This document shows, in pieces, positions 3,472 to 47,738 of a stretch of 64,000 nucleotides of DNA. The notes under the pieces were generated by a model. The model saw only the letters and a list, made by a program, of their open reading frames with translations. It ran no database searches and was not told the DNA's origin. The first letter of the stretch is position 1. Every line of letters begins with the position of its first letter. The stretch is from Clostridia bacterium. GTDB lineage: Bacteria; Bacillota; Clostridia; TANB77; CAG-508. Made by a program: the position numbers and the translations under genes. The stretch is from NCBI GenBank assembly GCA_900752335.1, contig CAADUZ010000024.1, forward strand, positions 2,200 through 66,199, written 5' to 3'.

Positions 3472-3515
3472 ATGTAAGTGCTGTAAGAGATAACAAGAAG
3501 TTTTAAATAAAATAT

Positions 3516-3665
3516 TAATAATAATGTATGTTTTGCATTTTTATTTGAGTGCTTAAGGTGGGGACCAACAAGTTTACAAACTGTTAAACGAAACATAAGT
3601 TTAGTTTATACAGTTTGTACGTAGTTGGGGGCCGAAAATACAAATGCAAACATACATTATTATGT
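3516..3665. repeat. nested palindromic element between convergent dpaB and pbp genes
   Basis: Outer inverted repeat taataatgtatgttttgcattt / aaatgcaaacatacattatta. Inner imperfect inverted repeat ccaacaagtttacaaactgt / acagtttgtacgtagttgg, both with G-rich shoulders. Confidence 0.5.
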
Positions 3666-3704
3666 TCTTAATACTTTATTTAAAAGCTGGTTATTGCAAC
3701 TTTC

Positions 3705-5561
3705 TTATTTCAAATAATCTTCTATTATATTCTTCGTTATTGGTAGTAAATAATGGCTTCCTCCTCTATTTTCTACATTTTCTATCATATTAATCATTAA
3801 TAGCTGCTTATCTGCTTTGTCGCTTACTACAAATGAGTTAAACCAGCCTAGCTCTTCCCCACTTTCTTCTTGCGATGCTTTTAGTTCTGCCGTTCCTGTT
3901 TTCCCTGCAAGTGTTATGCCATCTATTTCTGCTTCATGTCCTGTTCCATTTGGGTTTTCCACTACTTGTATTAAGTCGTCTTTTATTTCTTCTGCAGCTT
4001 CTTTTGTAAATGCATTTTCTATCCAATATTCTGGATTTGTTTTTTTAGTTGAAGAATATTCTATGTATGGCTTTATCATGTTTCCTTCATTTACAAATGC
4101 TGAATATATTGATGCTACATGCAATGGATTTACCAGTATTTTTCCTTGTCCATATCCAGAATCTGCAAGTCCTATTTCTGAAGTGAATTTATTATCTTCT
4201 GCAAATTGTGAAGTAGACATTCCTATTGGAAATTCTAATTCTTTATCAAATCCTATTTTTAATAATTGCTCTGCAAATTTTTCTGAACCTATTTTTATTG
4301 CTGCTTTTGCAAAATATACATTGTCTGAATATATTAATGCATTTCTTAAGTTAGCATTTCCTCCATATGTTGTTAATGTTGTAACTTTGTAATCTCCCCA
4401 GCTTTCGTCTTTTTGCCAACTTAATGTACTGCTTCCAAAACTCTCTGTGGCTGTAAAACTATCTGTTGTGAGTCCTATTGCTCCTGTAATTGGCTTAAAT
4501 GAAGAACCTGGTACCCATGTGCTTTCATACCTAGCAAACATTGGTGTATTCTTATCTGAACTTAATTTCTGCCATTCTTCATCTGTAAAACCTTGTATGA
4601 ATTTGTTTGAGTCAAAACTTGGTGTGCTTACCATAGCTAGCACTTCTCCTGTTTTTGGATTCATTGCTACTGAAAAGCCGTTATCCCCATCAAATTCTTC
4701 ATATATCTTGCTTTGCAAGTCTATGTCTATTGTTGTTTTAATATCTTCCCCATCTTCCATATCTGTTTCTGCTATTGTTGCTAATACTGCTTCATTCGCA
4801 TCAACCATATAGATTCCAGTTCCATTTTTTCCTCTTAATCTATCTTCAAATGCTAGTTCTAAACCATTTTTTCCGATTAAACTACTTGCTGTGTAGCCTT
4901 CTCCCTTATGAGCCTCTAGCTCCTCTTCGCTTATACCACGAATATATCCAACAAGGTGAGCTGCAATTTCTCCATATGGATATTCTCTTTCTCCATTTTC
5001 ATTATTTGTAGCAAGCACTTTTCCATTTCTATCTAGTATATCTCCTCTTGAACCAGAATTTGAGTATACCCTTATTTTATAGCTTTCTTCAAGTTCAGGA
5101 AATATTAAGTTAGAATACCAGTTTAAATAATATTTGTTATCGTCTTGTCTATCAAATGTTGCGGTATTTGAAAAATTTATCGTTCCTGCTAATGTGTCAA
5201 ATGTCATATCGTAATTTACACTTTTATTCTCTTCGTCATATACCAAATTAGATATTTCTATATTTGTAGCTTCTATTCCCTCATATATATTTTGATTTCT
5301 TGATAAAAATGTTTCTTTATCAACACGTTCTTTTGTTGAATCTGATAATAGCAGATACATGCCTTCATAGTCTTGATTTTTTAAACATTCTATATATGCG
5401 TTTAGAACTTCATCTGGCTTGTTTTTATCCATGTTTGATATTATATACCATGCTGTAAAACCTGCTATTAATAGTAGAACTATGACTGTAATTATGATTA
5501 CGGTCTTTTTACTAACTTTCTTTGTTCCTACTACTTCTTCTTTGCTTGTTTCTTCTTCCAT
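3705..5561 (-). CDS. class B penicillin-binding protein (transpeptidase) with NTF2-like/MecA-type N-terminal domain
   Basis: 618 aa; N-terminal TM segment; SxxK (PGSSFKP), SDN (IYSDNVYF) and KTG (GKTGTAEL) motifs. Confidence 0.85.
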   Translation of the reverse strand: MEEETSKEEVVGTKKVSKKTVIIITVIVLLLIAGFTAWYIISNMDKNKPDEVLNAYIECLKNQDYEGMYLLLSDSTKERVDKETFLSRNQNIYEGIEATNIEISNLVYDEENKSVNYDMTFDTLAGTINFSNTATFDRQDDNKYYLNWYSNLIFPELEESYKIRVYSNSGSRGDILDRNGKVLATNNENGEREYPYGEIAAHLVGYIRGISEEELEAHKGEGYTASSLIGKNGLELAFEDRLRGKNGTGIYMVDANEAVLATIAETDMEDGEDIKTTIDIDLQSKIYEEFDGDNGFSVAMNPKTGEVLAMVSTPSFDSNKFIQGFTDEEWQKLSSDKNTPMFARYESTWVPGSSFKPITGAIGLTTDSFTATESFGSSTLSWQKDESWGDYKVTTLTTYGGNANLRNALIYSDNVYFAKAAIKIGSEKFAEQLLKIGFDKELEFPIGMSTSQFAEDNKFTSEIGLADSGYGQGKILVNPLHVASIYSAFVNEGNMIKPYIEYSSTKKTNPEYWIENAFTKEAAEEIKDDLIQVVENPNGTGHEAEIDGITLAGKTGTAELKASQEESGEELGWFNSFVVSDKADKQLLMINMIENVENRGGSHYLLPITKNIIEDYLK

Positions 5562-8077: not shown

Positions 8078-8152
8078 TAAAAAACCTCCTATAAGTATTA
8101 ATTATTTATTAAAAATTTATATCGTTAAATTTTTAAAGCTATTTAAATATTT

Positions 8153-9178
8153 TTACATAGTTCCAGCTTGTACAGCTGTAATCGCTACAACGCCAACTAT
8201 ATCGTCGCTATTGCAGCCTCTTGATAAATCATTTACAGGTCTTGCAATACCTTGGCAAAGTGGTCCATATGCTTCTGCTTTTGCTAGTCTTTGAACTAGT
8301 TTATATCCAATATTTCCCGCATCTAAATTTGGAAATATTAAAGTATTTGCTTCTCCTTTTAGTGGGCTTCCTGGTGCCTTACTTGCATTTATTTCTGGTA
8401 CTATTGCTGCATCTAATTGTAGCTCTCCGTCACAAATTAGATCTGGCATTTTTTCTTTTAATAATTTAGTAGCCTCTATTACTTTTTCTGTTAATTCTGA
8501 ATGTGCACTTCCATAAGTAGAATATGAAAGCATTGCTACTTTTGATTCTTTTCCTGTTAATTGTTTAAAGCTTTTGCTTGAAGATATAGCTATCTCTGAT
8601 AATTCGTCTGCTGTTGGGTTTTCTACTAAACCACTATCTCCAAATATGAATACACCATTTTCTCCATATTTGCAATCTGGAACTACCATTAAGAAAAATG
8701 CTGATACAAGTTTTGTTCCTGGCGCTGTTTTTAATATTTGAAGTGCAGGTCTTAATGTATTTGCTGTAGAATGGCAAGCACCTGATACTAAACCATCTGC
8801 ATGTCCTAATTTTACCATCATTGTACCAAAATACATGTTATCTTTTAGCATTTCTCTTGCTTTTTCTTCTGTCATACCCTTTGCTTTTCTTAACTCATAA
8901 AAAGCATTTACATATTCTTCATATCTCTCTGAAGTTTCTGGATTTATAACTGGTATTCCTGAAATATCTATATTATTTGCTTTTGCTCTCTTTTTTGCAT
9001 CTTCTTCATTTCCTATAAGAATTACGTTTGCGAAACCTTCTTGTTTAACCTTTGCTGCTGCTTCTAATACTCTTATATCTTCGCTTTCTGTTAATATTAT
9101 AGTTTTTATATCTTTTTTTGCTTTATTTTTTATATCGTCTATAAAAGCCATAAAAAATGTACCTCCCTTAAATTTCAA
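8153..9178 (-). CDS. pta: phosphate acetyltransferase
   Basis: Pta-like throughout; sits directly upstream of ackA. The true start is probably the internal Met (MAFIDDIKNKAK, about 9151). Confidence 0.9.
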   Translation of the reverse strand: MKFKGGTFFMAFIDDIKNKAKKDIKTIILTESEDIRVLEAAAKVKQEGFANVILIGNEEDAKKRAKANNIDISGIPVINPETSERYEEYVNAFYELRKAKGMTEEKAREMLKDNMYFGTMMVKLGHADGLVSGACHSTANTLRPALQILKTAPGTKLVSAFFLMVVPDCKYGENGVFIFGDSGLVENPTADELSEIAISSSKSFKQLTGKESKVAMLSYSTYGSAHSELTEKVIEATKLLKEKMPDLICDGELQLDAAIVPEINASKAPGSPLKGEANTLIFPNLDAGNIGYKLVQRLAKAEAYGPLCQGIARPVNDLSRGCNSDDIVGVVAITAVQAGTM

Positions 9179-9237
9179 TGTAACACATATATTATATATG
9201 TTATTTAAGAAAAGTACAAGTATTTTTTAGTTTTTCT

Positions 9238-10041
9238 TTACCATTTAATTTTTGTTTCTTCTACTTTGTTGCCATCTTTATCTTTATATACAGTTGTTGA
9301 TATTCCATAACCTAGGTCATAAGTAGTTGAAGTTCCTACTTTTCTTCCATATTTATCTCTTACTTCTCCTATGCTTGATATTCCTGTATAATCTTTAAGT
9401 GTTCCTCCTATTTGCATAGAAGTAGCCTTATCTCCATTTTTAAAATAGCTTGTTGAAACATCGCCTAATGAAGGTTCATCTTTCTTATTATTACTACTAG
9501 AATAACTTGAACTGCTTGAACTAGTATAGTAATTGCCACTTGTATAAGAACCAGTTCCCGAATAATAGGTATAATAAGATTTCTCTGGTGGCTTTGACAC
9601 TATTATTAATGGAATATTTAATAATAGCACCAAGAATATAGCTGTTCCCACACCAACATTTCCCCATATTGACGCTGCTGTAATAAATACAGCCAAATAG
9701 CAAATCATATAGCATAATCTTGAGTAAAATCTGTCCATGGTCATTTTATATTTTATATTATATTCTTCTCTTAATTTTATATCAGAATTATACATTGAAA
9801 AATCGTCTGATTTATATTTTAATATTTTTGTACTTACTAATAATTTCTGTATTCCAAATATTAAAAATCTAAATGCTATATAATATATAACTATATAAGC
9901 AAAAGAAATCCAATTAGAAAAACCTACCTTTTGTTCTAAAAGGAACAAAGATGGCACTTTAATTAGTCCGAATATAGTTCCTATTAAACATAATATTACT
10001 TTGTTTTTTATATTTTTATTTTCTGTTTTCTTTTTTCCCAT
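9238..10041 (-). CDS. hypothetical membrane protein with Ser-rich linker and C-terminal Y/G/K-rich repeats
   Basis: 267 aa; N-terminal TM helices, poly-Ser tract, repeated YxxGxxK-type C-terminal units. Confidence 0.4.
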   Translation of the reverse strand: MGKKKTENKNIKNKVILCLIGTIFGLIKVPSLFLLEQKVGFSNWISFAYIVIYYIAFRFLIFGIQKLLVSTKILKYKSDDFSMYNSDIKLREEYNIKYKMTMDRFYSRLCYMICYLAVFITAASIWGNVGVGTAIFLVLLLNIPLIIVSKPPEKSYYTYYSGTGSYTSGNYYTSSSSSSYSSSNNKKDEPSLGDVSTSYFKNGDKATSMQIGGTLKDYTGISSIGEVRDKYGRKVGTSTTYDLGYGISTTVYKDKDGNKVEETKIKW

Positions 10042-10110
10042 AAAACACCCCTATAATTTAAAATCTGTTTAAATTATATCAAAGAAATCAAAAATTGTTA
10101 ATATTTATTT

Positions 10111-10434
10111 CTAAAAATTATTATTATTAAAATTATATAACATATTATATGGCAAATTTGAAATAGTTATAAATTTTATCGAATATATATCTGCATATGT
10201 TACCACGTCGCTCTCTAACGCACGTAGTAGTATATAGCTTGCACCAACGTCTATTAGTATTCCTGTTCTATCTACTAAATTATTGGTTCCTATTAAAAAT
10301 TCTACTCTCATAAGTTTTCCTATGTTCTCTCTTAAAAATGCTGGTGTATAGATATTATTTGTAAGAATTTCTGGTGAGTTCTGATTAATATCAACATTTC
10401 TATTTTCTCTAGTATTAATTTTATCATTGTTCAT
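10111..10434 (-). CDS. gerQ: spore coat protein GerQ
   Basis: C-terminal ENIGKLMRVEF...DVGASYILLR...YADIYSIKFITI matches the GerQ (YwdL) domain pattern. Adjacent to cwlJ as in many spore formers. Confidence 0.65.
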   Translation of the reverse strand: MNNDKINTRENRNVDINQNSPEILTNNIYTPAFLRENIGKLMRVEFLIGTNNLVDRTGILIDVGASYILLRALESDVVTYADIYSIKFITISNLPYNMLYNFNNNNF

Positions 10435-10455
10435 AGTAAAAAACCTCCTTTTCTT

Positions 10456-10911
10456 TTAAGTATTTGAATAGGCTTCTGTAGGTCTATAGAAGCAATGATT
10501 TCCAAGCCTTGTGTGAAATGTCCCCGAACCGTTTGATGGGAATGTGCTTCCACAAGTTGGTCTAAATGGATTTAAATACCACAAGCACTCGCCTATCTCA
10601 TTTAACTTATTCCCTCCTAAAACCCAGTCTGCTATCTCATAATGTATATCTGTCGGATTCATATTATATATATTTTGTGGGTTATATGCGCCTCCCAGAG
10701 TTTCTCGTACGCAATCAAATTGTCCTTCTTGAAATACTATGTTTCGTATACTTCCCCCTTGCGAAATTCTTGAATATTCTCCTTCTGAAGCATGTACTCT
10801 ATTCATTATTACTGTTGCTATAGCCTTCATTCCATTATCCCCTTCTCCTCCTGCTTCACATTCTATAAGTCTTGCAATTAATTCTCTGTCTGAATAGCCC
10901 ATAAAAAACAC
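10456..10911 (-). CDS. cwlJ: cell wall hydrolase CwlJ/SleB family (spore cortex lytic)
   Basis: 151 aa; LIARLIECEAGGEGDNGMKAIATVIMNRV is the Hydrolase_2 (CwlJ/SleB) signature. Confidence 0.8.
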   Translation of the reverse strand: MFFMGYSDRELIARLIECEAGGEGDNGMKAIATVIMNRVHASEGEYSRISQGGSIRNIVFQEGQFDCVRETLGGAYNPQNIYNMNPTDIHYEIADWVLGGNKLNEIGECLWYLNPFRPTCGSTFPSNGSGTFHTRLGNHCFYRPTEAYSNT

Positions 10912-11165
10912 CTCATAATATTATATGAAGTGTTTTTTGCTTTGTGTGCAACTTATTTAATTAATTAGTACTACTGTTCCTAATACCAACGTGTTTAGTA
11001 GATTATCCAACGTTTTTTCTTCTCCATCTATTACTAGTTTTCTTGAGCTTAAATATAATTTCATATTTTAAATATAGCTGCGCTTAAATAAAACTTAAAA
11101 AAATCTACTAAAATTGTTTATTCTACTAGATTTTTATTTATATATATTATATAATACCTACAAAT

Positions 11166-17136: not shown

Positions 17137-18066
17137 CTATGCTTTATTGCTTGAACCGAAGACGTCTCTTATTTTATGTTCTACTGTTTCTTTTATTAAT
17201 TCTCTTGCTGGTGTTAAGTATGCTCTTGGATCAAATTTTGAAGGTTCTTCTGTAAATACTTTTCTTATTGCTGCTGTCATTGCTAATCTTAAGTCTGTAT
17301 CTACATTTATTTTTGATACACCAGATACACTTGCTTCATGTAGCATTTCATCTGGTACACCTTTCGCTCCTGGTATATCTCCCCCATATTTATTACACAT
17401 TTCTACTAATTCTGGTATAACTGTAGATGCACCATGTAAAACTATTGGTGTGTTTGGTATTCTTTCTTTTACTTTTGCTAATATATCAAATCTTAATTTT
17501 GCTTCTCCTTTAAATTTATATGCTCCATGGCTTGTTCCAATAGCTATTGCAAGTGAGTCGCATCCTGTTCTTTCCACAAATTCCTTTGCTTGGTCTGGGT
17601 CTGTATACATTGCATCAGAAGCTGCTACGTTTACGTCATCTTCTATTCCTGCGAGTTTCCCAAGTTCTGCTTCTACTACTACGCCTTTTGAGTGTGCGTA
17701 TTCTACAACTTTCTTTGTTAAAGCTACATTTTCTTCAAAGTCGTATTTTGAACCATCTATCATAACAGATGAAAAACCGTTATCTATACACATTTTGCAT
17801 GTTTCAAAGTCTGGACCATGGTCTAGGTGTAATGCTACTGGTATATCATATTCGTCAAGTGCTGCCTCTACCATTTTTCTTAAATATCCTATTCTTGCAT
17901 ATTTTATTGCACTAGATGATGCTTGTAAAATAACTGGCGAATTTTGGCTAGCTGCTGCATCTACTATTCCTTGTATTATCTCCATGTTGTTTACGTTAAA
18001 TGCACCTATTGCAAATTTTTCTTTCATTGATTTTTCAAACATATCTTTTGTAGTTACTAATGGCAT
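17137..18066 (-). CDS. fba: class II fructose-bisphosphate aldolase
   Basis: 309 aa; MPLVTTKDMF...FAIGAFNVNNMEI matches FbaA. Confidence 0.9.
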   Translation of the reverse strand: MPLVTTKDMFEKSMKEKFAIGAFNVNNMEIIQGIVDAAASQNSPVILQASSSAIKYARIGYLRKMVEAALDEYDIPVALHLDHGPDFETCKMCIDNGFSSVMIDGSKYDFEENVALTKKVVEYAHSKGVVVEAELGKLAGIEDDVNVAASDAMYTDPDQAKEFVERTGCDSLAIAIGTSHGAYKFKGEAKLRFDILAKVKERIPNTPIVLHGASTVIPELVEMCNKYGGDIPGAKGVPDEMLHEASVSGVSKINVDTDLRLAMTAAIRKVFTEEPSKFDPRAYLTPARELIKETVEHKIRDVFGSSNKA

Positions 18067-18224
18067 AATAATTCCTCCTTTAAATATCCATTCAAATTAC
18101 AAGGTAATTATATATTAATTTGATTTTTTAATCAAGTATCTAAATTCTTAATTTTTTATTTTCAAATACATAAAGTACCCCTCACTTCCTAGTTGGAAAT
18201 GAGGGGATTTTTGAGGTTTAAGAG

Positions 18225-19640
18225 TTACCTATAAGACGTCGAAAACGATCTTACAAGACCATAGGGGCAAATCCTGAACAGATAGTCTCTTCCAAGAATT
18301 GCAACGTCCTTTGGATTAAGTTCGTCCGCAATTCTGGCGGAAAACATTTGCTTGGATTTGAGTTCTCCATGGTTTACCAGTACGAGTTTCAGGCAGTTGA
18401 ACTTTTTAAGGAAAGCCAACATTTCGTCCGCTTTTGCGTGTGCAGACATTTCGTTTGTATACTCTACGTCCGCATACTTTCTCTTTACCAGTCCTCCTGC
18501 TGTTACCACTTCTCCGTTTGGCGTGTCTTTGAGTTCACGCCCGAGAGTTCCTTCGGCTGTATACCCAGTAAACTGAATCAAGCAGCCTTCCCTTCCTATA
18601 TAGGAAGGGATATAGACCTGTGCAGGTCCATAAGTCCCCATTCCAGAGGTGGTAACAATGATTTTACAACCATTGTCTTCAAGAAGGCTTGGTCTGGATT
18701 CTTTGTCAACATACGTCAGATTTTCCGGTAAGAAATCCAACATGTCTTCTTTGATATCCAAATTCGCCCTTTTGTAGAGCTCCGTGTACCGCAACGCAAG
18801 TTTCCCATCCAGATAGATAGGAATATCTGCACTGATTTTGCCATTTTTCTGCATACACTTAAGCATATACAGAATTTCCTGGCATCTTCCAAGAGAAAAT
18901 ACCATACATACAGCAGTCTTTCCTCTCTTCATGCACGACGTAATATTGTCTTGCACTACCGGAACAATTTCCGTAGAGTCCATATATCCATAAGTGGATT
19001 CTTGAACCAACGTCAGCGGTAAATCCAGCACCCAGTCTGGAAGGTCGGGAATGTCAAAAAAGACATTCTTGTTGTTGTAGTCCCCAGTAAAAAGGATATT
19101 GATATCCTCATACCCTGGATAACTGATTTGCACCAAAATCATCGCAGCACCAATCAGATGGCCATTCTTGAAGAATGTAGCTTTAATGTTTTTGCTAACA
19201 TAAACTGGCAGCTCGTAATCGCAGCCAACTACTTTCTTCAAAGTGAGTGCAACATTGTCCTCGTTATAGAGGGGCTGCACATGGTTTCTTTTGGCGGTGT
19301 CTTTTAACACCTTGTACGAATCATATAGTGCAAGCGGCAAAAAGATTTCTGTTTGTTTTGTAGCGTATATCTTACCTCCATATCCGGTTTTGTCAAGTAA
19401 CGGTAGCCGTCCAACATGGTCTACATGATTGTGCGTAATAAGCACAAAATCAATGTTGTCGCTGTCAAACGGGAATGAACGGTTATACTCTTGGTAATCC
19501 CGCTCTTGGAATAGTCCGCAGTCAACTACGAACTTGGCGCTTTCGCCATTAGGATACTTGACAATCACAAGATTGCAAGAACCTGTCACTTCTGGTTGTA
19601 ATGCCATTATGTCAGCATAAAACCGTTCTTTTGAGCCCAT
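18225..19640 (-). CDS. MBL-fold beta-CASP family metallo-hydrolase (RNase J/CPSF-like nuclease)
   Basis: 471 aa; HNHVDHVGRLP (HxHxDH). Markedly higher GC (about 42%) and different codon usage from the flanks. Confidence 0.7.
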   Translation of the reverse strand: MGSKERFYADIMALQPEVTGSCNLVIVKYPNGESAKFVVDCGLFQERDYQEYNRSFPFDSDNIDFVLITHNHVDHVGRLPLLDKTGYGGKIYATKQTEIFLPLALYDSYKVLKDTAKRNHVQPLYNEDNVALTLKKVVGCDYELPVYVSKNIKATFFKNGHLIGAAMILVQISYPGYEDINILFTGDYNNKNVFFDIPDLPDWVLDLPLTLVQESTYGYMDSTEIVPVVQDNITSCMKRGKTAVCMVFSLGRCQEILYMLKCMQKNGKISADIPIYLDGKLALRYTELYKRANLDIKEDMLDFLPENLTYVDKESRPSLLEDNGCKIIVTTSGMGTYGPAQVYIPSYIGREGCLIQFTGYTAEGTLGRELKDTPNGEVVTAGGLVKRKYADVEYTNEMSAHAKADEMLAFLKKFNCLKLVLVNHGELKSKQMFSARIADELNPKDVAILGRDYLFRICPYGLVRSFSTSYR

Positions 19641-19768
19641 AGAATTCCTCCATCCTATAATAAAATTATTTATTTATAGCCTCAAACTATAAACATACTT
19701 ATATTATACAGCGAAATTTCTTTAGGCACAAGCTTATTTTAAGTTTTTTACCAATTTTATTAATTTTT

Positions 19769-19942
19769 TTACTGATTTTTATTATTATTCCTATAGCTGC
19801 TGCACATAGATTCGTCAGACTGCTTTGTATTGCATCCAACTATTGGAGTTACTATTATTTGCTCTAATTTACACTCTTGGCATCCTTCGTCATTATATTT
19901 ACAGCTTGTTACTGTACAATTTATTTTTTGATTTTTTTGCAT
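19769..19942 (-). CDS. small Cys-rich protein, DUF1540-like (57 aa)
   Basis: Not in the ORF track (under 60 aa). MQKNQKINCTVTSCKYNDEGCQECKLEQIIVTPIVGCNTKQSDESMCSSY… with RBS AAGGAGG; the CxVxxCxYN…C pattern matches DUF1540. Confidence 0.5.
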   Translation of the reverse strand: MQKNQKINCTVTSCKYNDEGCQECKLEQIIVTPIVGCNTKQSDESMCSSYRNNNKNQ

Positions 19943-20050
19943 AGAAAAAATAACCTCCTTTATATTAAACTTAATATTAGTATGGTTATTTTTCTTTAAA
20001 TTTATTCTTTTATGATTTTTTATTTTATATCTTTCTATAAATTTGCTGCA

Positions 20051-20794
20051 TTATTTTTCTTTCATATTACTTTTACAGTTTTCATTAGTAGTAATACATT
20101 TTTCCTCTGGCATTTTGAAACTCAAATACCAATTTATTCCATTTCTGTTTTTTTCAATTTCTTTATTTCTTTCTAGTAATTCATTAAAAGTTTTAGGTGG
20201 TGGAACAATTACGGGCTCTCTTGGTATCCAATTTGCTGCAGTCATAGCGTTTGAGCAGTCCGACATTTGAAGTGCTTGAACTATTCTTACTATTTCTGGT
20301 ATAAACCTTCCAATATTCATTGGATATATCAAAATTGTTCTTATTATGCCTTTATCGTCTACAATATATACGTTTCTTACTGTTTCCGTATTACTTATAT
20401 CACTTGAAAACATGCCATATTTTCTAGCTATTTCTCCATTTCTATCTGCTATTATTGGGAATGGTATTCGTATTCCTGTTTTGCAATATATATCATAAAC
20501 CCACGCTAAATGAGAACTATTACTATCCACACTTAAGCCCATTAAACAAGTATTAATATTTTCAAAATATGTATTTGCCCTTGCAAATGCTATCATTTCG
20601 CTTGTGCAAACAGGTGTAAAATCCGCTGGGTGAGAGAATAACACAAGCCATTTTCCTTTATAATCATTTAGTGAAATATTCCCCATAGTTGTTACAGCTT
20701 CAAAATCTGGAGCTCTTTGCCCTATGCGCACATTTCCGTTCATCATTATTTCGTAATCCATAAAAATATAACTCCTTTCAATTATCAAACTCAT
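20051..20794 (-). CDS. peroxiredoxin (Prx6-like, 1-Cys type)
   Basis: FSHPADFTPVCTSE peroxidatic Cys motif. True start probably the internal MMNGNVRIGQRAPDF. Confidence 0.8.
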   Translation of the reverse strand: MSLIIERSYIFMDYEIMMNGNVRIGQRAPDFEAVTTMGNISLNDYKGKWLVLFSHPADFTPVCTSEMIAFARANTYFENINTCLMGLSVDSNSSHLAWVYDIYCKTGIRIPFPIIADRNGEIARKYGMFSSDISNTETVRNVYIVDDKGIIRTILIYPMNIGRFIPEIVRIVQALQMSDCSNAMTAANWIPREPVIVPPPKTFNELLERNKEIEKNRNGINWYLSFKMPEEKCITTNENCKSNMKEK

Positions 20795-20979
20795 GAAATT
20801 TTCTTTTAATTTGTATATTTTATGAATTAAGCTTAATTTATGTTACATAACAGCCATGAAATCTCTATTTTTCTTTCTATATAATCTTATGATTTAGAAA
20901 AGTAGTAATTATTTTTAATTAATTGTTGATTTATGCATCTATTTAATATATAATCATCTCGAAAATATTTGGAGGAAAT

Positions 20980-22209
20980 ATGTTGTTACTATTCTATATA
21001 ATTATTTTTGTAGAAATATTTACTATACTATATAATATTTTTAAATTTTTAAAGATACTAGTAAAGAAAAATGAATTAGACCTTCAGTTATATAGTAAAG
21101 ATTTGCAAATAAATATTTTGATTCCTTGTTATGAAGAAATAAATGTTATTAAAAGAACTATAGAACATTTTAATAACATTACAAAAAACATGAAGAATAT
21201 TAATATCTATGTTATTACAACTAATAAAGAAAAATATGAAAATCGCCTAAAAGAAACTACATATGAATATTTAATGAAATTAGATATAATGAAACAAAGA
21301 AATATTCATATAATAAATTATCCTATGAAAAATGGATTTATGGCTGATCAATTAAATTATGGGATAGCTAAAATATTAGCAGGCTCTATCTTTACACATG
21401 ATAAAATTTATTTCTCAATATATAATGCAGATAGCTTGCCAGACCCAAATACTTTTTCTGAACTTATATCCAAAATAATAAAATATAATTATCCTAAAGT
21501 TCTTCAGCAATATAGCAATTATTATCTAAATTATAATAAGCAAAATTTCATTATGAAAGGTTTTGCAATGTATCAAACTGCATTTGAATTAAGAAATGGT
21601 TTAATAAATAATAAATTATGCAGATTTTTATATTCCCATGTAGTCGGTCATGGTCTTACAATAAGAGCAGATTATATTACTGAAATAAACGGTTTTACGA
21701 ATACTGTATGGTGTGAGGATATATATATTACTGGATTACTCTTTAATAATGGTATAAATATAATCCCATTAAATTCGATGGATAATGCAGAGAATCCTGA
21801 AAAATTATCAGTTCAAATAAATCAAAATGCTGTTTGGTTTAAGACAGCTTCACATCCAGCAAAAACATTAAATGACATAAAAAAAGATTATAAGATTACA
21901 AGATATGGCATTATTTGGTTGTTTCATGAAATAAGAGCAACTTTTATTTGGATTTTTATGCCGATATTTTTAATATATTCATTTATTTATCCTACTATTA
22001 TACTAAATTCTAAATTATTAATACTTGCAATATGTAGTTATTTAATATTTTGCTTTGTTAATTATACTTTAAATTTAATAATAGTATGTAAAGAAAAATT
22101 TAAAATTTATTTAAAGGATTATTTTGCTCTAATTTTTTCTATTATGCTTACAGGAATCGGTCCAGCCAAATCATTCTTTTTAAAGGAGAAAAAGAAAACT
22201 CCACGCTAA
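20980..22209 (+). CDS. family 2 glycosyltransferase with N- and C-terminal TM segments
   Basis: 409 aa; INILIPCYEE GT2 N-terminal motif, DxD-like YNADS, C-terminal multi-TM region. Confidence 0.6.
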   Translation: MLLLFYIIIFVEIFTILYNIFKFLKILVKKNELDLQLYSKDLQINILIPCYEEINVIKRTIEHFNNITKNMKNINIYVITTNKEKYENRLKETTYEYLMKLDIMKQRNIHIINYPMKNGFMADQLNYGIAKILAGSIFTHDKIYFSIYNADSLPDPNTFSELISKIIKYNYPKVLQQYSNYYLNYNKQNFIMKGFAMYQTAFELRNGLINNKLCRFLYSHVVGHGLTIRADYITEINGFTNTVWCEDIYITGLLFNNGINIIPLNSMDNAENPEKLSVQINQNAVWFKTASHPAKTLNDIKKDYKITRYGIIWLFHEIRATFIWIFMPIFLIYSFIYPTIILNSKLLILAICSYLIFCFVNYTLNLIIVCKEKFKIYLKDYFALIFSIMLTGIGPAKSFFLKEKKKTPR

Positions 22210-22310
22210 CATTCTCTGTAAAAGGTAAAATCATTTCTTGGTATTCTATTTCTAATAGAATACCAAGAAATGATTTTTATATTATATTTGCAAATACTAA
22301 ACAATAAATA

Positions 22311-23189
22311 TTAATTTAGGTTCCAATCTTCAATTATTCTTTTGTCGATATTTAAATTTCCATAGCCAATTCCTAATTTTCTATCTTTCTTCTTATCCCC
22401 ATGGCAGTCAGAACCTCCAGACATTAATATTTTTTTGTCTTTGCAGTAATTATACAGCGTATCTATTTGTAATTGTGAAAAAGAACTATGATATACCTCT
22501 ATCCCATCTATTAATTCTTTATCTATGATTTTATTTAAGAAATTAATATGGTTACTTAAATTATACTTATATAAATGTGCTAGAAAAATCTTTCCATTAT
22601 GTTTATGTATAAGCTCTTTTACAGACTCAAGTGTTGGCATTTGTTTACTAAAATCTCTATATAACGGAAAGTTTCTATCTACCGTACATGTTCTAAAAAA
22701 TATTCCGCAGTCATTCCATTGCTCATTTGTAAAAAATTTTTTGTTTCCTGGAAATTTAATAATACTATTATAAATAACGTCTACAGGATATTCTGTGTCT
22801 GGATTATACTTGAGGTTCTCTTCTATTTTTATATCCTTTTCATTACATATTCTAACAAAATCTTTAAACTCTTCAATTAATCTATTTCTATTTTTGGCCT
22901 CACTATAATAGCTTTCCAACCAGTTTTGAACTGAATGTAAATCAAAGTCATATGCTAAAACTTCAATCTTTGTTCCTTCAAATGTGCAGTTTAATTCAGC
23001 TCCAATAATTAATTTTCCTTTATAAATATTTTTAAGTTCAGGATTTTGTTCAATTTCAATATATGATTTCGCTGTATCGTGATCAGTTATAGAAAATGCG
23101 TCTAATTTTAATTTTTGCGCATTTTCAAGTAATTCTTTTGTACTCCATGTTCCATCTGAATTTGTTGTATGTGAATGCAAATCAATCAT
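22311..23189 (-). CDS. PHP-domain phosphoesterase
   Basis: MIDLHSHTTNSDGTWS...FSITDHDT is the PHP N-terminal metal-binding motif. Confidence 0.75.
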   Translation of the reverse strand: MIDLHSHTTNSDGTWSTKELLENAQKLKLDAFSITDHDTAKSYIEIEQNPELKNIYKGKLIIGAELNCTFEGTKIEVLAYDFDLHSVQNWLESYYSEAKNRNRLIEEFKDFVRICNEKDIKIEENLKYNPDTEYPVDVIYNSIIKFPGNKKFFTNEQWNDCGIFFRTCTVDRNFPLYRDFSKQMPTLESVKELIHKHNGKIFLAHLYKYNLSNHINFLNKIIDKELIDGIEVYHSSFSQLQIDTLYNYCKDKKILMSGGSDCHGDKKKDRKLGIGYGNLNIDKRIIEDWNLN

Positions 23190-23880
23190 CGTTTATTTCT
23201 ATTTCCTTTCCTTTTAATTTTAAAAATCTGCTAACTTCATTTAAAACTTCTTTTTCATTTTTATTATTTGTATCAATTAATTTAAATCTATTTTGTTTAT
23301 CTAAATCAGAAAGTTTTTTGAAAAATTCAATTTGTTTTATAATTAAACTAGAATCTATCCATTCATTTTCAGATAATTTTTGTCCTCTTTCTCTTTGCCT
23401 AATTGCATTTCTCCTTATCACTTCTTCCGGACTTGCTTGTAGCCACAAATATAGGTCTGGAAATCTTAAACCTTTTTTAGTTATCATATTACAAAATTTG
23501 TTATATAAATCTCGTGCATTTGTATAAATTCCTGGCCAGTTTTTTATACTTTCGAAAGAATATGCAACAGATATTATTTCTAATACACTTCTATCCATAA
23601 AAACAGCTTCATGATTTTGTGACAATCTGACAGCCTCTGTTAGTCTCTCTAATTCTAATTTAAAAAAGAATTTTTGATTATTTTTTTCTTCCTCTATAGT
23701 TTCAGGGATTGGTGGAATATTAGGATATTTGGCTTGATTTTGTCTTGCAAAAATGCTGGCACCAGGAATAATTGCAATGTCTTCCATTTCTCTTTGTAAA
23801 TTCTCACATAATGTTGTTTTTCCTGCATTTGAAGTTCCATCTATAACAATTATTCTTCCCATATTAATCAAACTCCACAA
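23182..23880 (-). CDS. P-loop kinase, deoxynucleoside kinase-like
   Basis: IVIDGTSNAGKTTL (Walker A) and MDRSVLE (dNK ERS-like motif); overlaps both neighbours. Confidence 0.55.
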   Translation of the reverse strand: MWSLINMGRIIVIDGTSNAGKTTLCENLQREMEDIAIIPGASIFARQNQAKYPNIPPIPETIEEEKNNQKFFFKLELERLTEAVRLSQNHEAVFMDRSVLEIISVAYSFESIKNWPGIYTNARDLYNKFCNMITKKGLRFPDLYLWLQASPEEVIRRNAIRQRERGQKLSENEWIDSSLIIKQIEFFKKLSDLDKQNRFKLIDTNNKNEKEVLNEVSRFLKLKGKEIEINDD

Positions 23881-24304
23881 TTACTTCTTTTATCATTCTT
23901 TCTAATTCTTCTAAATTTCTGGCAATTTTAAATTCCATACAACCCTCTATCATTAAATTGTCATCTCCAGTATAATCTAAAGCTCTAGTATCCGTTTTAA
24001 ATCCTATACACTTAATTCCCCAAGCGTATGCCATTCCTAATTCAACACAGCCGCCTTCATCTGGCACTCTTCCATTTAAATCAAAAATTAATAAATCAGA
24101 GTTCTTTATACATTTAATATCACTCTCAAAAATCATTTTATTAATTTTCCTCTTGTTACCAGTATCTATTTTTTCATATGCAAGTCCTGCTTCATCTTGA
24201 GGCAAATATACAAAGTATCCTTTACTTTCTAGCCATTTTTTCATTTTTTCATTTTTATTCAGTTCCCAATCATTAAATAATGGTGCAGCATAATATATCT
24301 TCAT
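23864..24304 (-). CDS. nucleoside 2-deoxyribosyltransferase / DNPH1(Rcl) superfamily protein
   Basis: 146 aa; N-terminal KIYYAAPLFN (YxAGPxF-like) and catalytic-Glu motif DEGGCVELGMA (compare DSGTAxEIGxA). Confidence 0.65.
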   Translation of the reverse strand: MKIYYAAPLFNDWELNKNEKMKKWLESKGYFVYLPQDEAGLAYEKIDTGNKRKINKMIFESDIKCIKNSDLLIFDLNGRVPDEGGCVELGMAYAWGIKCIGFKTDTRALDYTGDDNLMIEGCMEFKIARNLEELERMIKEVIVEFD

Positions 24305-24320
24305 CCCTTGATATTCCTTT

Positions 24321-24992
24321 CTACTTCAAAATTTTATATTTTTCATTTTCATCAAAAGCATCTATATCCTCTTTTCTTTTTATGAAACCAATTACTATAT
24401 ATGTTATTGGCGTTAATATAATTTCTAATGTTACTTTTAATATATAGACATTTAACATTAGGTTCAGCATTTTACTTAAATCTAGCTTTCCCAAAAATGC
24501 GATTGGTATAAATAATAATGTATCTAATCCTTCTCCAACTAGTGTAGACGTTACGGTTCTTAATCCTAAATACTTTCCTTTTGTTTTTACTTTTATTTTA
24601 GACAAAATTATTGAGTTAGTAAAATTTCCAAGTAAGTAAGAAATAAATGAAGCTAATAAAATTCTAGGTGTATTACCTAAAATATTCTGAAATTCACGCT
24701 GCATCGTAAAAGATTTATCTTCTGGAAACCAAATTACAATTCCGAAAATTATAACCATTATTAAATTACAAAAGAATGAAATCCAAATAACAAATTTTGC
24801 CTTATTAAAGCCGTAAACTTCTGTAAAAATATCGTTTAATATATATGTAAATGGAAAAAGTAAATCTCCCGCTGTAAATATTAATCCAAATATATTAATT
24901 GTTTTTACGGTAACAATGTTTGAAATTAATAGAAATGTAATATTTAAACTACATAATATAATAAATAGTCTAGTATATTGCTCTTTTTTCAT
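24321..24992 (-). CDS. YhhQ/Vut_1 (DUF165) family queuosine-precursor transporter
   Basis: 223 aa, 6 TM helices; LISNIVTVK… and FPFTYILNDIFTEVYG match the YhhQ conserved block (FPFIFLATDLTVRIFG in E. coli). Confidence 0.7.
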   Translation of the reverse strand: MKKEQYTRLFIILCSLNITFLLISNIVTVKTINIFGLIFTAGDLLFPFTYILNDIFTEVYGFNKAKFVIWISFFCNLIMVIIFGIVIWFPEDKSFTMQREFQNILGNTPRILLASFISYLLGNFTNSIILSKIKVKTKGKYLGLRTVTSTLVGEGLDTLLFIPIAFLGKLDLSKMLNLMLNVYILKVTLEIILTPITYIVIGFIKRKEDIDAFDENEKYKILK

Positions 24993-25651
24993 TTTATTTT
25001 ATCAATCACTTCCTTATCAATTATTTCTGCATATTTAATATTAAATCCTCTTCTTATAAAAAAATCTCTGTTATAATTCGCATCTAATAAATCAAATATT
25101 GCAAATTTAACTTTTAATTTTAGATACAAAGCGACAGATAGCCTATGAGCCCCATCTATAATTTCCCCATTTTTTGTTATTGGAATAATTGTTTTATCTA
25201 TTCCATGCTCTTTTATATCATTTATTAAGATGTCAAATCTTTTTATAAATTCATCAGGTCCACTTTTTTTACCATCCGGTTCCAAAAAATTATTAAAAGA
25301 TTTTATATGATTCGTATATATTTTCTTCGCTAACATATAATTATTTCTCTCTAGATAATTTTTCACATAGTAATATTTAATAAATACGTCATATCTATAT
25401 TTACTAATTAAATTAGTTGAATTAGCTTCAAAAATTCTTATTTTATTTCTTTTCTTTAATAAAGATAGAATATAATCATTATCTAGCAAATTCTTTAATT
25501 CTAAATATGAGATGGTTTCTAGATATTTAGAATTTTTGATTGGAATGTTTTTGTCTTTTTTGTTATTATCTCTTAAACTTTCAAATCTGATATATCCCAT
25601 TCCTTTTATATTTTCACAAATTTTCTTTTTCCTATTTGCATTATACCTCAT
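24989..25651 (-). CDS. ParB/Srx-fold (ParB-like nuclease domain) protein
   Basis: 220 aa; ITKNGEIIDGAHRLSVAL resembles the DGxHR motif of the ParB/sulfiredoxin/DndB superfamily. 4-bp overlap with yhhQ-like. Confidence 0.5.
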   Translation of the reverse strand: MRYNANRKKKICENIKGMGYIRFESLRDNNKKDKNIPIKNSKYLETISYLELKNLLDNDYILSLLKKRNKIRIFEANSTNLISKYRYDVFIKYYYVKNYLERNNYMLAKKIYTNHIKSFNNFLEPDGKKSGPDEFIKRFDILINDIKEHGIDKTIIPITKNGEIIDGAHRLSVALYLKLKVKFAIFDLLDANYNRDFFIRRGFNIKYAEIIDKEVIDKIK

Positions 25652-25767
25652 AAGAATCCTTTTTCATTATATTCCCAATTACATTTTTTCTTATAATAAA
25701 ACCCTATGAAAATTCACATACAGATAAATAGCATAATTATCTTATGCTATTTATTATATATCAAGAC

Positions 25768-27354
25768 TTATATCCTTGTAAATAAAGGTTCTATGCCCTC
25801 TAATTTTAGGCCTGGTTTAGGTTCTATTAATTTCCAGCTTTTTTCTTGCAAACCTAAATATTTACGTATTTTCTCGCATGCATTTGGCATAAATGGTTCA
25901 AATATATTTGCTAAATTTGCAATTATTACACTACATGTGTATATAGTGTTGTTAAATCCTTCTATATCTTCTTTTTTCTGTACCCAAGGTTTTTGCTCGT
26001 CATAGTACTTATTTGCTGTTTCTACTAATTGCATTGCTATATCACTTGCTGTTTTAAATTCTAACTTTTCTATGTTTTCTCCTACTAATTTATATGTTTC
26101 TTCTATTTTTTCCTTTATTTCTTCGTCTAACTTACCTTGTGGTACTTCTTCTAATTCTTTAAATTTTAGCGTTCTATTTACTAAATTTCCAAATTTGTTT
26201 AATAGTTCTCCATTGTTTGTTGCAATTAATGCCTCTATGGTAAAGTTTGAGTCTTTTTTCTCTGGTCCATTATTTATCAAATGGAAACGTAATGGATCTA
26301 CGCCATATTTTTCTACTAATTCTATTGCTGGTGTTCCATTTCCTTTGCTTTTTGATATTTTTTCGTCATTTATATTTAAGTATTCAGAAGAAACTACTGT
26401 GTTTACTAAATGGTAATTATCTTTCATTGCCATTAATAATGCGTTGAATATGATACTATGGAATACTATATTGTCTTTACCATGTACCATGTATATAGTT
26501 GGGCTGTATTCTTCTTTCCAAAATTCTTCCCAATTTTTTCCCAATTCTTCGCATTTTTTCATAGTTGCTGTTATATATCCAAGTACAGCTTCTATCCACA
26601 CATACATTTTTTTAGTTTCATATCCAGGTACCGGTATATCTACACCCCAGTCCAAATCTCTTGTTACTGCTCTATCGACTAATCCTTGTTTTAGATATTT
26701 AGCTGTTTCATTTTTTGCGTTTACTCTCCAAAGTGAGTTGTTTTTTTCTACATACTCTTCTATATCTTTTTGGAATTTAGATAATTCTAAATACAAGTTT
26801 TTATTATCTTTTAGAACTATTTTTTCTTTACATTCTAGGCAAATTCCTTCTTTCATATCTTCTATAGTAGGTACATATTGGCAATTATCGCATTGTTCTG
26901 CTTTTGTAGTTTGTCCACATTTTGGGCATGTTATTTCAAGCTCTCTATCTGATAGGAACTTTTGGCAATGTTCACAATATGCTTGTGGTTCTATTTTTTC
27001 ATATATATATCCATTATCATACATTCTTTTAAACATTTTCATAACTTCTTGTTTATGAAAATCTGTTTCTGTTTTAGTGTATAAGTCATAAGAAAAATCA
27101 AATTTTTCCAATGTTTCCTTATCTCTTTCATGATAATATTCTGCAATTTCTTTTGGTGATTTTTTTTCTTTTTTAGCTCTCTCTGTTATTGGTGTTCCGT
27201 GGCAGTCTGTTCCAGAAACATACATTACGTTATCTCCCTGCAGTCTAAAATATCTAGCAAGTATATCTCCTGATATTAAACCTGCTATGTGCCCTAAATG
27301 TAAGTCGCTATTTGCATATGGCCATGCGCCACCTATCAATATGTTTTTGCTCAT
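25768..27354 (-). CDS. metG: methionine--tRNA ligase (short form)
   Basis: 528 aa; HLGH (GHIAGLISGD region), CxxC zinc knuckles, KMSKS-like KISKSKGN. Confidence 0.9.
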   Translation of the reverse strand: MSKNILIGGAWPYANSDLHLGHIAGLISGDILARYFRLQGDNVMYVSGTDCHGTPITERAKKEKKSPKEIAEYYHERDKETLEKFDFSYDLYTKTETDFHKQEVMKMFKRMYDNGYIYEKIEPQAYCEHCQKFLSDRELEITCPKCGQTTKAEQCDNCQYVPTIEDMKEGICLECKEKIVLKDNKNLYLELSKFQKDIEEYVEKNNSLWRVNAKNETAKYLKQGLVDRAVTRDLDWGVDIPVPGYETKKMYVWIEAVLGYITATMKKCEELGKNWEEFWKEEYSPTIYMVHGKDNIVFHSIIFNALLMAMKDNYHLVNTVVSSEYLNINDEKISKSKGNGTPAIELVEKYGVDPLRFHLINNGPEKKDSNFTIEALIATNNGELLNKFGNLVNRTLKFKELEEVPQGKLDEEIKEKIEETYKLVGENIEKLEFKTASDIAMQLVETANKYYDEQKPWVQKKEDIEGFNNTIYTCSVIIANLANIFEPFMPNACEKIRKYLGLQEKSWKLIEPKPGLKLEGIEPLFTRI

Positions 27355-47658: not shown

Positions 47659-47738
47659 GAGAAATTAGGGACAGGTCCCATTTTCCCATTTTTGAGTTTA
47701 ACTGGAAATGAGAATTTGAGACCTGTCCCTAATTTCTC
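47659..47738. repeat. 19-bp perfect inverted repeat with 42-bp spacer, overlapping the pbp1A stop codon
   Basis: gagaaattagggacaggtc … gacctgtccctaatttctc. The loop contains aaatgggaaaatgggacctgtccc (minus-strand reading), which recurs at 63541. Confidence 0.7.

Follow-up and report, generated by a model that had tools for sequence, protein, structure and literature searches.

Several described pathways pair a glycosyltransferase with a dedicated phosphatase. The synthesis of glucosylglycerate, mannosylglycerate, trehalose and sucrose follows the order kinase, glycosyltransferase, phosphatase, and the phosphatases of these pathways (GpgP, MpgP, TPP and SPP) are from the HAD and histidine-phosphatase families. 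Nucleoside 2'-deoxyribosyltransferase (NDT) has so far been treated as a pure salvage enzyme. Here we describe a locus that contains genes of both sorts, in a 64,000-nucleotide stretch of DNA from a Clostridia bacterium (Bacillota; Clostridia; TANB77; CAG-508; assembly GCA_900752335.1, contig CAADUZ010000024.1, positions 2,200 to 66,199 of the forward strand; hereafter, the window). The locus consists of an operon of five minus-strand genes and a convergent gene for a membrane glycosyltransferase of family GT2. We conclude that these five genes represent one layout of a larger module of small-genome gut Firmicutes, which comprises six genes in two transcripts. The invariant core of this module is the GT2 enzyme, a dNK/dTMP-kinase-like kinase and a phosphomonoesterase. 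An NDT is the commonest fourth member, and a Vut_1-family transporter and a ParB-like protein are optional.

The module resembles the GpgS/GpgP, MpgS/MpgP, TPS/TPP and SPS/SPP systems in logic only, in that a glycosyltransferase is paired with a dedicated phosphatase, which in those systems is of the HAD or histidine family. GpgS, MpgS, TPS and SPS are soluble glycosyltransferases that act on sugar or glycerate phosphates. In contrast, the glycosyltransferase of the module is predicted to be membrane-embedded, a kinase gene is always present, and the phosphorylated intermediate is likely a nucleotide. Each of the six proteins comes from or resembles a known superfamily, and we found no description of their combination in the literature. 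Our searches covered YhhQ together with a deoxyribosyltransferase, the kinase or hydrolase of queuosine salvage, and clusters of NDT with glycosyltransferases; none turned up the module. A first-pass annotation of the window, made from the sequence alone, had proposed a deoxy-7-deazaguanine salvage or DNA-modification route and knew of no description of it. A paper on exopolysaccharide (EPS) synthesis in L. johnsonii has the relevant terms in a proteomics table only.

Gene content and conservation of the module

The five minus-strand genes encode, in order of transcription, a ParB-like protein (24989-25651, 220 aa), a Vut_1/YhhQ-family transporter (24321-24992, 223 aa), a DpNDT-type NDT (23864-24304, 146 aa), a P-loop kinase similar to dNK and dTMP kinases (23182-23880, 232 aa from a TTG start), and a PHP-family phosphoesterase similar to TrpH and YciV (22311-23189, 292 aa). 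The kinase gene probably starts at the ATG at 23862 (226 aa), as in its orthologs and 1 nt past the NDT stop codon. The genes are packed tightly; where neighbors overlap they share 4 and 8 bp, and elsewhere at most 16 bp separates them. Conserved homologs are numerous for each of the five open reading frames (ORFs), and for this reason we regard all five as real genes. The first-pass annotation had placed five overlapping genes at these positions and quoted the motifs DGAHR, FPFTYILNDIFTEVYG, YYAAPLFN and DEGGCVELGMA, all of which are present. The unit that it described is real and compact, but it was drawn too small. It left out the convergent GT2 gene ('GT410', 20980-22209, plus strand, 409 aa), with which the kinase and the phosphatase are most constantly associated.

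We compared two sets of loci, 80 genome loci centered on the NDT and 80 metagenome loci centered on the GT2 gene. ORFs were labeled by tblastn with the six window proteins and by family HMMs. After de-replication at 90% GT2 identity, 35 lineages had at least 3 kb of flanking sequence on both sides. The kinase gene adjoins the GT2 gene in all 35, including 12 that have no NDT. A phosphatase gene of one of two families is present in 31 (PHP in 24 and His_Phos_1 in 7), and one more lineage has a HAD phosphatase. The NDT gene is found in 23 lineages, the ParB-like gene in 15, and Vut_1, the least conserved member, in 8. Conversely, among 57 NDT loci without GT2 (from candidate phyla radiation [CPR] bacteria, archaea, Acidimicrobiia and others), none has the kinase and one has PHP, as a decayed copy. 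Therefore, the kinase and the phosphatase belong with GT2. The NDT, the ParB-like gene and Vut_1 are, in this order, increasingly optional.

Close relatives of the window hold all six genes, and the flanks differ between lineages. Because the flanking genes differ, the linkage is not mere inherited gene order. The 80 NDT-centered loci show three arrangements, convergent or co-directional, in which the set of NDT, GT2, kinase and PHP is preserved. In the arrangement of the window (type A), the order ParB-like, Vut_1, NDT, kinase, PHP is convergent with GT2, and in a variant (A') the ParB-like gene is upstream of GT2 instead. The commonest arrangement (type B) is NDT, GT2, kinase, PHP on one strand, without Vut_1 and without the ParB-like gene. 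Type C has ParB-like, GT2, kinase and His_Phos_1 genes and no NDT. Type D is either kinase, GT2, GT2, YdjC, HAD and a NupG-like MFS transporter, or kinase, methyltransferase, GT2. Type C and the longer form of type D, both of which lack the NDT, came from the 80 GT2-centered loci. The NupG-like transporter is carried by locus L090, and no ParB-like module was detected with a broad profile in the extra GT2 of that locus. The variant operons thus hold neighbors of a tailoring type, namely a YdjC deacetylase, S-adenosylmethionine-dependent methyltransferases and a second GT2.

The accessory genes can be seen to decay. In a sister lineage (~88% nucleotide identity), three independent assemblies have a 1-bp frameshift in the ParB-like gene, inside its DGAHR motif and between the residues GEIID and GAHR. 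One of the three is the closed 1.57-Mb HiFi genome OZ007016.1 (L017), in which an in-frame deletion of ~600 bp also takes nearly all of Vut_1 and leaves NDT, kinase, PHP and GT2 intact. In the sister-lineage assembly L030, the C-terminal half of Vut_1 and the N-terminus of the NDT are gone. The decayed regions lie at 260-1000 in L007, 8265-9010 in L017 and 1699-3000 in L030.

Some other neighbors were considered. An ABC exporter pair was rejected as a seventh member, as its homologs occur in only 8 of the 35 lineages and at scattered positions. In type C loci other than L087, the ~316-aa neighbor of GT2 is a fragment of a penicillin-binding protein (PBP). In L155, a 957-aa protein apparently of the adenylation/carrier type (similar to nonribosomal peptide synthetases, judged by eye; 8143-11016) follows the kinase-GT2 pair.

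The proteins of the module

According to its AlphaFold2 model (pLDDT 92, pTM 0.90), the GT2 protein is a membrane-embedded enzyme with a minimal cellulose/hyaluronan-synthase-like fold. In a Foldseek search of the PDB, the model matches BcsA, the hyaluronan synthases (HAS) of a Chlorella virus and Xenopus, and the 'minimal cellulose-synthase-like' PcManGT (E 1.5e-10 to 1e-8, TM up to 0.67). The similarity spans the full length of the protein, that is, the GT-A domain, the interface and the transmembrane helices. At the level of sequence, Pfam GT2 matches are below threshold, relatives match PgaC/IcaA weakly, and no solved synthase structure is matched. The protein shares with BcsA, HAS, PgaC, IcaA, NodC and PcManGT the fold, a size of ~410 aa and, putatively, the order of motifs, including ED and Q...W. 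It differs from these synthases in having only about four hydrophobic helices, in its putatively altered UDP-contact residues, and in always occurring together with a phosphatase and a kinase of the nucleotide type.

The invariant residues of the GT2 family include IPC..E, TT (80-81), GxMADQLN, YNAD (151), QxYS, VVGHG, WCED (247), Q282xxxW286 and a C-terminal KxKTxR. The catalytic ED (E246, D247) and the Q...W acceptor motif with its acceptor-stacking Trp are kept, as are equivalents of the KAGNLN, QxPQ and VGTG motifs. At the positions that would contact UDP there are invariant changes, with TT in place of DD after strand 2, NAD in place of DxD, and QxxVW in place of QxxRW. Motif positions were assigned via predicted secondary structure, so these correspondences are putative.

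The kinase appears to be on the dNK/dTMP-kinase branch, in line with its earlier description as a dNK-like P-loop kinase. It scores 34.1 bits against dNK (PF01712), just over the cutoff of 27, and 23-43 bits against the dTMP kinase model TIGR00041, under the cutoff of 83. The best full-length or substantial matches of the kinase profile among solved structures are thymidylate kinases (1tmk at 1e-5; 5uiv over its full length), followed by YorR and dNKs, and the solved thymidylate kinase and dNK relatives span E values of 1e-5 to 1e-2. A RecA chain outscores the thymidylate kinases in this search solely through repeated matches to the P-loop. Invariant residues are the P-loop GxSxxGKT, E65, Q69, E76, D96 followed by R or K, and, in the Arg-rich LID, R157, N158 and R161. 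The invariant residues include several that are probably part of the substrate pocket.

The phosphatase slot is filled by three unrelated folds, with His_Phos_1 or HAD taking the position of PHP in other lineages. The type C His_Phos_1 assignment was confirmed at 9e-22. The window protein, previously called a PHP phosphoesterase, is indeed over the cutoff for PF02811 (1e-9, 39 bits). Its best NCBIfam models are RNase RNM (80 bits) and 3',5'-nucleoside bisphosphate phosphatase (62-77 bits), with cutoffs of 375-400, and its relatives in the PDB are 3e0f, 9etk and 7ug9. By these matches, it seems closest to the RNase AM/3',5'-nucleoside bisphosphate phosphatases of the TrpH/YciV branch. In several type C operons (L152-L154, L168, L138 and L144), a gene that follows His_Phos_1, about four genes from GT2, encodes a protein of 349 aa that matches an HD domain weakly (E 0.003) and may be a further nucleotide-phosphohydrolase member of the module.

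The window NDT is, judging from its conserved residues, a genuine and ordinary DpNDT-type enzyme. It matches PF05014 at 1.5e-21 (77 bits; cutoff 28.8). A profile of 19 relatives matches PDB 7O62 (DpNDT) at 4e-32 and 7m5h at 1.5e-17, and pairwise identity to DpNDT is 38%. Y4, D62, D82, E88, N116 and M118 vary little or not at all among the 19 sequences. These residues map to Tyr16, Asp74, Asp94, Glu100, Asn127 and Met129 of DpNDT (the last two in the NLM motif), and the conserved F10, E14 and R107 map to the tetramer residues Phe22, Glu26 and Arg119. Thus, the catalytic Tyr, the two Asp, the Glu nucleophile, the Asn-Leu-Met motif and the tetramer-interface Phe, Glu and Arg are all shared. The two differ in that GACIDDGVAFE in DpNDT corresponds to an invariant GRVPDEGxCVE segment in the window subfamily, and in part of this subfamily the NDT gene is joined in an operon to genes for the membrane GT2, the kinase and a phosphatase. 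DpNDT is a tetrameric type II NDT from Desulfotalea psychrophila (PDB 7O62) that is inactive on ribonucleosides, prefers 2'-deoxyuridine or thymidine with thymine, uracil or hypoxanthine, and, on canonical substrates, was judged by its authors to be 'a poor catalyst' (PMC12372993). Members of the DpNDT subfamily are common in reduced genomes, those of CPR bacteria among them; in phages, there are only distant matches, in large lytic phages.

The first-pass annotation had left a choice between an NDT and a DNPH1-like fold. The transferase half of this call stands. The protein is not closer to the nucleotide N-glycosidases of the DNPH1/MilB type, given the weak score of the CMP N-glycosidase 4jen against the NDT profile (E 0.007, versus 4e-32 for DpNDT) and the retained NLM transferase motif.

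The transporter was correctly assigned to the Vut_1/YhhQ family, with 171 bits (2e-50) against PF02592 (cutoff 27) and 141 bits against TIGR00697 (cutoff 51). However, it scores only 62.7 bits against PRK11212, the equivalog of E. coli-type YhhQ, versus a cutoff of 252. It shares its Pfam and TIGRFAM family with the preQ0/preQ1 transporters of YhhQ/COG1738, and differs from them in being partnered with an NDT and dispensable in its module. COG1738 is heterogeneous and may transport other purines (PMC5372724). The closest homologs in phage databases (32-35% identity) adjoin que genes or genes similar to tRNA-guanine transglycosylase (TGT). For example, Streptococcus phage MS1 has the order QueC, QueD, QueE, FolE, Vut_1, TGT, and in MT836020 Vut_1 is beside QueC and QueF, both recognized by motif.

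In all loci of the window type, Vut_1 is directly upstream of the NDT. In addition, two related CPR genomes (Patescibacteria, WWE3) have an overlapping two-gene NDT-Vut_1 operon without other genes of the module (L039, 2882-4052; L046, 8989-10075), and the CPR Vut_1 is 26% identical to that of the window. Because of the constant adjacency and the independent CPR operon, the Vut_1-NDT link looks functional. The pairing thus arose, or was kept, in widely different lineages, and Vut_1 probably imports the acceptor base for deoxyribosyl transfer. The earlier proposal that an imported base is placed on deoxyribose is therefore fair for this pair, but its identification of the base as a 7-deazapurine is unsupported. 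The CPR operon is preceded by a 5'-3' exonuclease and a fragment of a group II intron-type reverse transcriptase, and an opposite-strand GT4 pair comes after it.

The ParB-like protein matches no Pfam or NCBIfam family at E<=0.01, and the ParBc and DGQHR profiles do not match it. A sequence profile built from 23 diverse members gives no link to solved structures, those of ParB and Srx included. In fold matching, ParB-N-type domains are at the top in two programs, with marginal ParB-N/Srx scores. The fold that the first-pass annotation had assigned is thus backed by marginal fold matches and a DGxHR-type motif, and by no family profile. The protein shares with the ParB/Srx superfamily (ParB-N, KorB, sulfiredoxin, DndB/DpdB) a DGxHR-type motif on a strand-helix element. 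It differs from that superfamily in lacking ParB box II (GxxRxxA) and in its context, which is glycan biosynthesis, not DNA.

An exhaustive search finds 1172 representative clusters of this family at E<=1e-3, many of them multidomain; members in loci L172 and L173, for instance, lie at 8944-10425 and 3491-4942. In most clusters, the domain is an N-terminal or internal module of a larger protein, typically the first ~170 residues of 'hypothetical proteins' of ~350, ~480 or ~750 aa in polysaccharide clusters. Recognizable fusion partners are GT2, GT10, FkbM methyltransferase and TPR. The motifs of the domain are RFDxxxKYxY, H, ExDGxxK, DG[AS]HR and FFxxRG, and its invariant residues are D88, K92, Y112, H115, E124, K129, P157, G167, H169, R170 and F198. 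A member on the Ilyobacter plasmid pILYOP01 is in an EPS cluster with a priming glycosylphosphotransferase, GDP-fucose synthesis, several glycosyltransferases and an FkbM methyltransferase, and a member on a Jannaschia plasmid has GT4 enzymes and sulfotransferases as neighbors. Similarly, the ParB-like gene adjoins GT2 within loci of the module. No dnd or dpd context was found for the family; its members occur in fusions and EPS clusters instead. From these fusions and neighborhoods, we take the domain to be a glycan-pathway domain and not a DndB/DpdB-type DNA-modification protein, as had been suggested earlier. It defines a large family, with more than 1,000 representative clusters and no Pfam model, that is built into proteins of glycan biosynthesis.

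Proposed function and alternatives

We tentatively favor a function of the module as a nucleoside-fed cassette of kinase, glycosyltransferase and phosphatase that makes a glycoconjugate, a proposal that we hold with less than even confidence. We favor it because it covers the adjacency of GT2 and kinase, the swappable phosphatase, the tailoring neighbors and the nucleoside theme, which consists of the NDT, the dNK/TMPK-like kinase, a PHP protein similar to nucleotide phosphatases, Vut_1 and the NupG-like MFS transporter. The substrates and the order of steps that we infer are as follows. Vut_1, as its family membership suggests, would import a free purine-type base. The NDT would then move 2'-deoxyribose from an available deoxynucleoside to this base via a covalent intermediate at Glu88, as suggested by the full conservation of its catalytic residues and by what is known of DpNDT biochemistry. 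The kinase would phosphorylate the nucleoside or nucleotide. Given the obligatory adjacency of kinase and GT2, the GT2 enzyme would most likely glycosylate the phosphorylated nucleotide as an acceptor. In a close alternative, the phosphorylated nucleotide would be the carrier of an unusual sugar donor for GT2, which would fit the putatively altered UDP-contact residues. The phosphatase would finally strip the phosphate, as the interchangeable phosphatase slot suggests. The predicted membrane domain of GT2 suggests export of the product or its attachment to the envelope.

A narrower proposal, that the core is fed by the NDT and a base or nucleoside transporter and builds a nucleoside-derived glycoconjugate, we consider unlikely as it stands. 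It has two possible versions. In one, the product would be a glycosylated (deoxy)nucleoside, with the synthase-like membrane domain as its exit route or anchor, and in lineages with Vut_1 this could be a 7-deazapurine deoxynucleoside. In the other, an unusual nucleotide sugar, deoxy- or ribose-phosphorylated, would be built into a surface polymer. If true, either would be a biosynthetic logic not described for a synthase-fold GT2, and a role for NDT outside salvage. If the linkage is functional, common and uncultured human-gut Firmicutes with small genomes couple an NDT and a kinase of the thymidylate/deoxynucleoside type to a membrane glycosyltransferase, which would point to an unrecognized surface or secreted glycoconjugate or to unusual sugar-donor chemistry.

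Several points weigh against a nucleoside-fed cassette. The known products of GT2 enzymes with the synthase fold are polysaccharides or lipid-linked glycans, and we know of none that makes glycosylated nucleotides. The NDT is missing in about one third of the lineages and Vut_1 in three quarters, so that the nucleoside feed is not universal. The similarity of the kinase to dNK and TMPK is weak (34 bits, and under NCBIfam cutoffs), and such a kinase could phosphorylate something else or be regulatory. PHP and His_Phos_1 are both broad families. Our reading of the donor-site motifs of GT2 relies on placement by secondary structure and not on structural superposition. Lastly, GT2 and the five-gene operon are separate transcripts in the window.

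An unlikely explanation of another kind is that the operon serves plain salvage and interconversion of deoxynucleosides and deoxynucleoside monophosphates (dNMPs), with GT2 as an unrelated neighbor. The phosphatase would free deoxynucleosides from dNMPs or oligonucleotides, the NDT would swap in a base imported by Vut_1, and the kinase would re-phosphorylate the product, perhaps balancing dNTP precursors in a reduced genome. Four of the family assignments fit such an operon, NDT and dNK are the classic salvage pair of lactobacilli, and the hosts of the module have small genomes (~1.5-1.6 Mb). The spread of the DpNDT subfamily in reduced genomes and the NDT-Vut_1 pair of CPR bacteria also agree with salvage. 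But outside the GT2 module the NDT comes without the kinase and, with a single exception, without PHP, the kinase remains beside GT2 even in the 12 lineages that lack an NDT, and the commonest arrangement places GT2 inside the operon, between NDT and kinase. The strict GT2-kinase adjacency and the interchangeable phosphatase would also be expected if these two enzymes serve GT2 itself and the NDT and Vut_1 are loosely attached extras, which we think is quite unlikely. They might form a phosphorylation switch on the synthase, like the pairs of bacterial tyrosine kinase (BY-kinase) and CpsB in capsule synthesis, since the capsule phosphatases of the CpsB type are PHP enzymes. Or, the kinase might phosphorylate a nucleotide-activated donor and the phosphatase recycle the nucleoside bisphosphate, as with 3'-phosphoadenosine 5'-phosphosulfate and adenosine 3',5'-bisphosphate (PAPS/pAp). 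The relationship of the PHP protein to 3',5'-nucleoside bisphosphate phosphatases agrees with the latter, and the invariant Thr-Thr-x-Lys that would replace the ribose-binding DD could bind a ribose phosphate. However, the kinase does not resemble a BY-kinase, lacking both the Walker A'/B pattern and a C-terminal Tyr cluster, it matches the dNK/TMPK families and not the APS-kinase or DPCK families, and the retention of the NDT in two thirds of the lineages is left unexplained.

The first-pass annotation had proposed that Vut_1 imports preQ0, preQ1 or queuine, that the NDT adds 2'-deoxyribose and the kinase phosphorylates it, and that the product is incorporated into DNA or joins a salvage pool of deoxy-7-deazaguanine, the ParB-like protein having its role on the DNA. 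We now consider this very unlikely. NDTs accept base analogues in biocatalysis, Vut_1 is over the cutoff of a family named 'queuosine precursor transporter' (TIGR00697), its phage homologs keep company with que or TGT-like genes, and its pairing with the NDT recurs independently. On the other hand, there is no tgt, dpdA or que gene among the ~36 annotated ORFs of the window and none that recurs in the 160 related loci, and no preQ1 riboswitch or any other Rfam family was found upstream of the operon even at E<=5. The TGT-like DpdA and the preQ0 supply genes of Dpd-type DNA modification are thus not found in the window, unlike in phage MS1. In addition, Vut_1 is rare among the lineages and deleted in a sister genome, its COG may have other purines as substrates (PMC5372724), the ParB-like domain is typical of glycan clusters and its gene carries a frameshift in the sister lineage, and GT2, the constant partner of kinase and PHP, would have no role. 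We conclude that the module is probably not a 7-deazaguanine system that acts on tRNA or DNA, and a specific route to 7-deazaguanine deoxynucleosides is unsupported. As a caution, a YhhQ/Vut_1 match and a DGxHR motif are insufficient to infer 7-deazaguanine chemistry or DNA modification. Salvage of queuine, in which queuosine or a precursor is imported, the kinase makes the 5'-monophosphate, an NDT-fold hydrolase frees queuine and PHP trims 3'-phosphates, is highly improbable. Hydrolases of nucleoside monophosphates with the NDT fold do exist (DNPH1 and MilB), and the NDT has its weak match to 4jen. Eukaryotic Qng1 uses queuosine 5'-monophosphate as a substrate (PMC9881137). But the NDT has the full transferase signature with NLM and a nearest relative that is inactive on ribonucleosides, no gene or riboswitch of the queuosine pathway is nearby, and Vut_1 is dispensable. 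Finally, it is extremely improbable that the module is an anti-phage defense system or mobile-element cargo that manipulates nucleotide pools. Domains similar to NDT and kinases occur in some defense systems, the kinase has a weak match to VakA in PADLOC (6e-6), and one or two large serine recombinases (Resolvase/Recombinase/Zn_ribbon_recom) are beside the module in 10 of the 35 lineages. However, the remaining five proteins of the module have no match in PADLOC, neither GT2 nor the ParB-like gene is matched in 50,697 phage records or IMG/VR (plasmids give one partial match to GT2), and in the window the module lies among housekeeping genes with no recombinase adjoining it.

Transcription signals and the surrounding window

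Composition of the window is ~25-35% GC, and nearly all of the coding sequence is on the minus strand. A bidirectional intrinsic terminator hairpin with a perfect 20-bp stem (22229-22275, both strands) lies between the convergent stop codons of the PHP and GT2 genes. A terminator scan gave six terminator-like calls versus 1.0 expected, and this one hairpin yields all six. The hairpin is common to the five-gene operon and the GT2 transcript, and for that reason the two transcripts are tied together. Upstream of the ParB-like gene, a promoter-like site on the minus strand (25753-25782, TTTACA-18-TATAAT) matches 11 of 12 consensus positions. It is the best promoter match of the region, by consensus only, and the number of such sites is not above shuffled expectation. 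A site before the GT2 gene (20926-20954, plus strand, TTGATT-17-TATAAT) matches 10 of 12 positions, also by consensus only.

The loci flanked by recombinases include L001-L005, L087, L093-L104 and L109-L114. An AhpC-type peroxiredoxin gene is directly beside GT2 in the window (20051-20794) and lies beyond the recombinases in L087. This pattern suggests an integration hot spot at the position of the module. In L087, a gene of the phosphoribosyl pyrophosphate (PRPP) synthetase family is beside GT2; PRPP-dependent ribofuranosylation was considered and dropped, as this neighbor is not recurrent.

Annotation of ~36 window ORFs gave housekeeping and sporulation genes, which include metG, glmM, argS, pfk, pta, ackA, clpX, spoIIIA genes, a PBP and a small alarmone synthetase. 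At gathering thresholds, Rfam has no matches in the whole 64 kb, and thus no tRNA or rRNA families. There is no T-box leader upstream of metG (ending at 27354) or argS (ending at 30972), which is unusual for a Firmicute. The class A PBP is split into overlapping minus-strand ORFs (47729-49015 and 48975-50306), the upstream one with the glycosyltransferase half and the downstream one with the transpeptidase half (TIGR02074 positions 2-280 and 283-533), which points to a frameshift, pseudogene formation or misassembly. An ORF for a XerC/XerD-type tyrosine recombinase (2150-2809, plus strand) matches model positions ~80-290 only, which probably means that the ORF was listed with too late a start or that the gene is incomplete. 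A bump in GC content (0.376 at 18001-20000, versus ~0.25-0.33 in the rest) overlaps a gene for a beta-CASP/metallo-beta-lactamase protein similar to RNase J (18225-19640).

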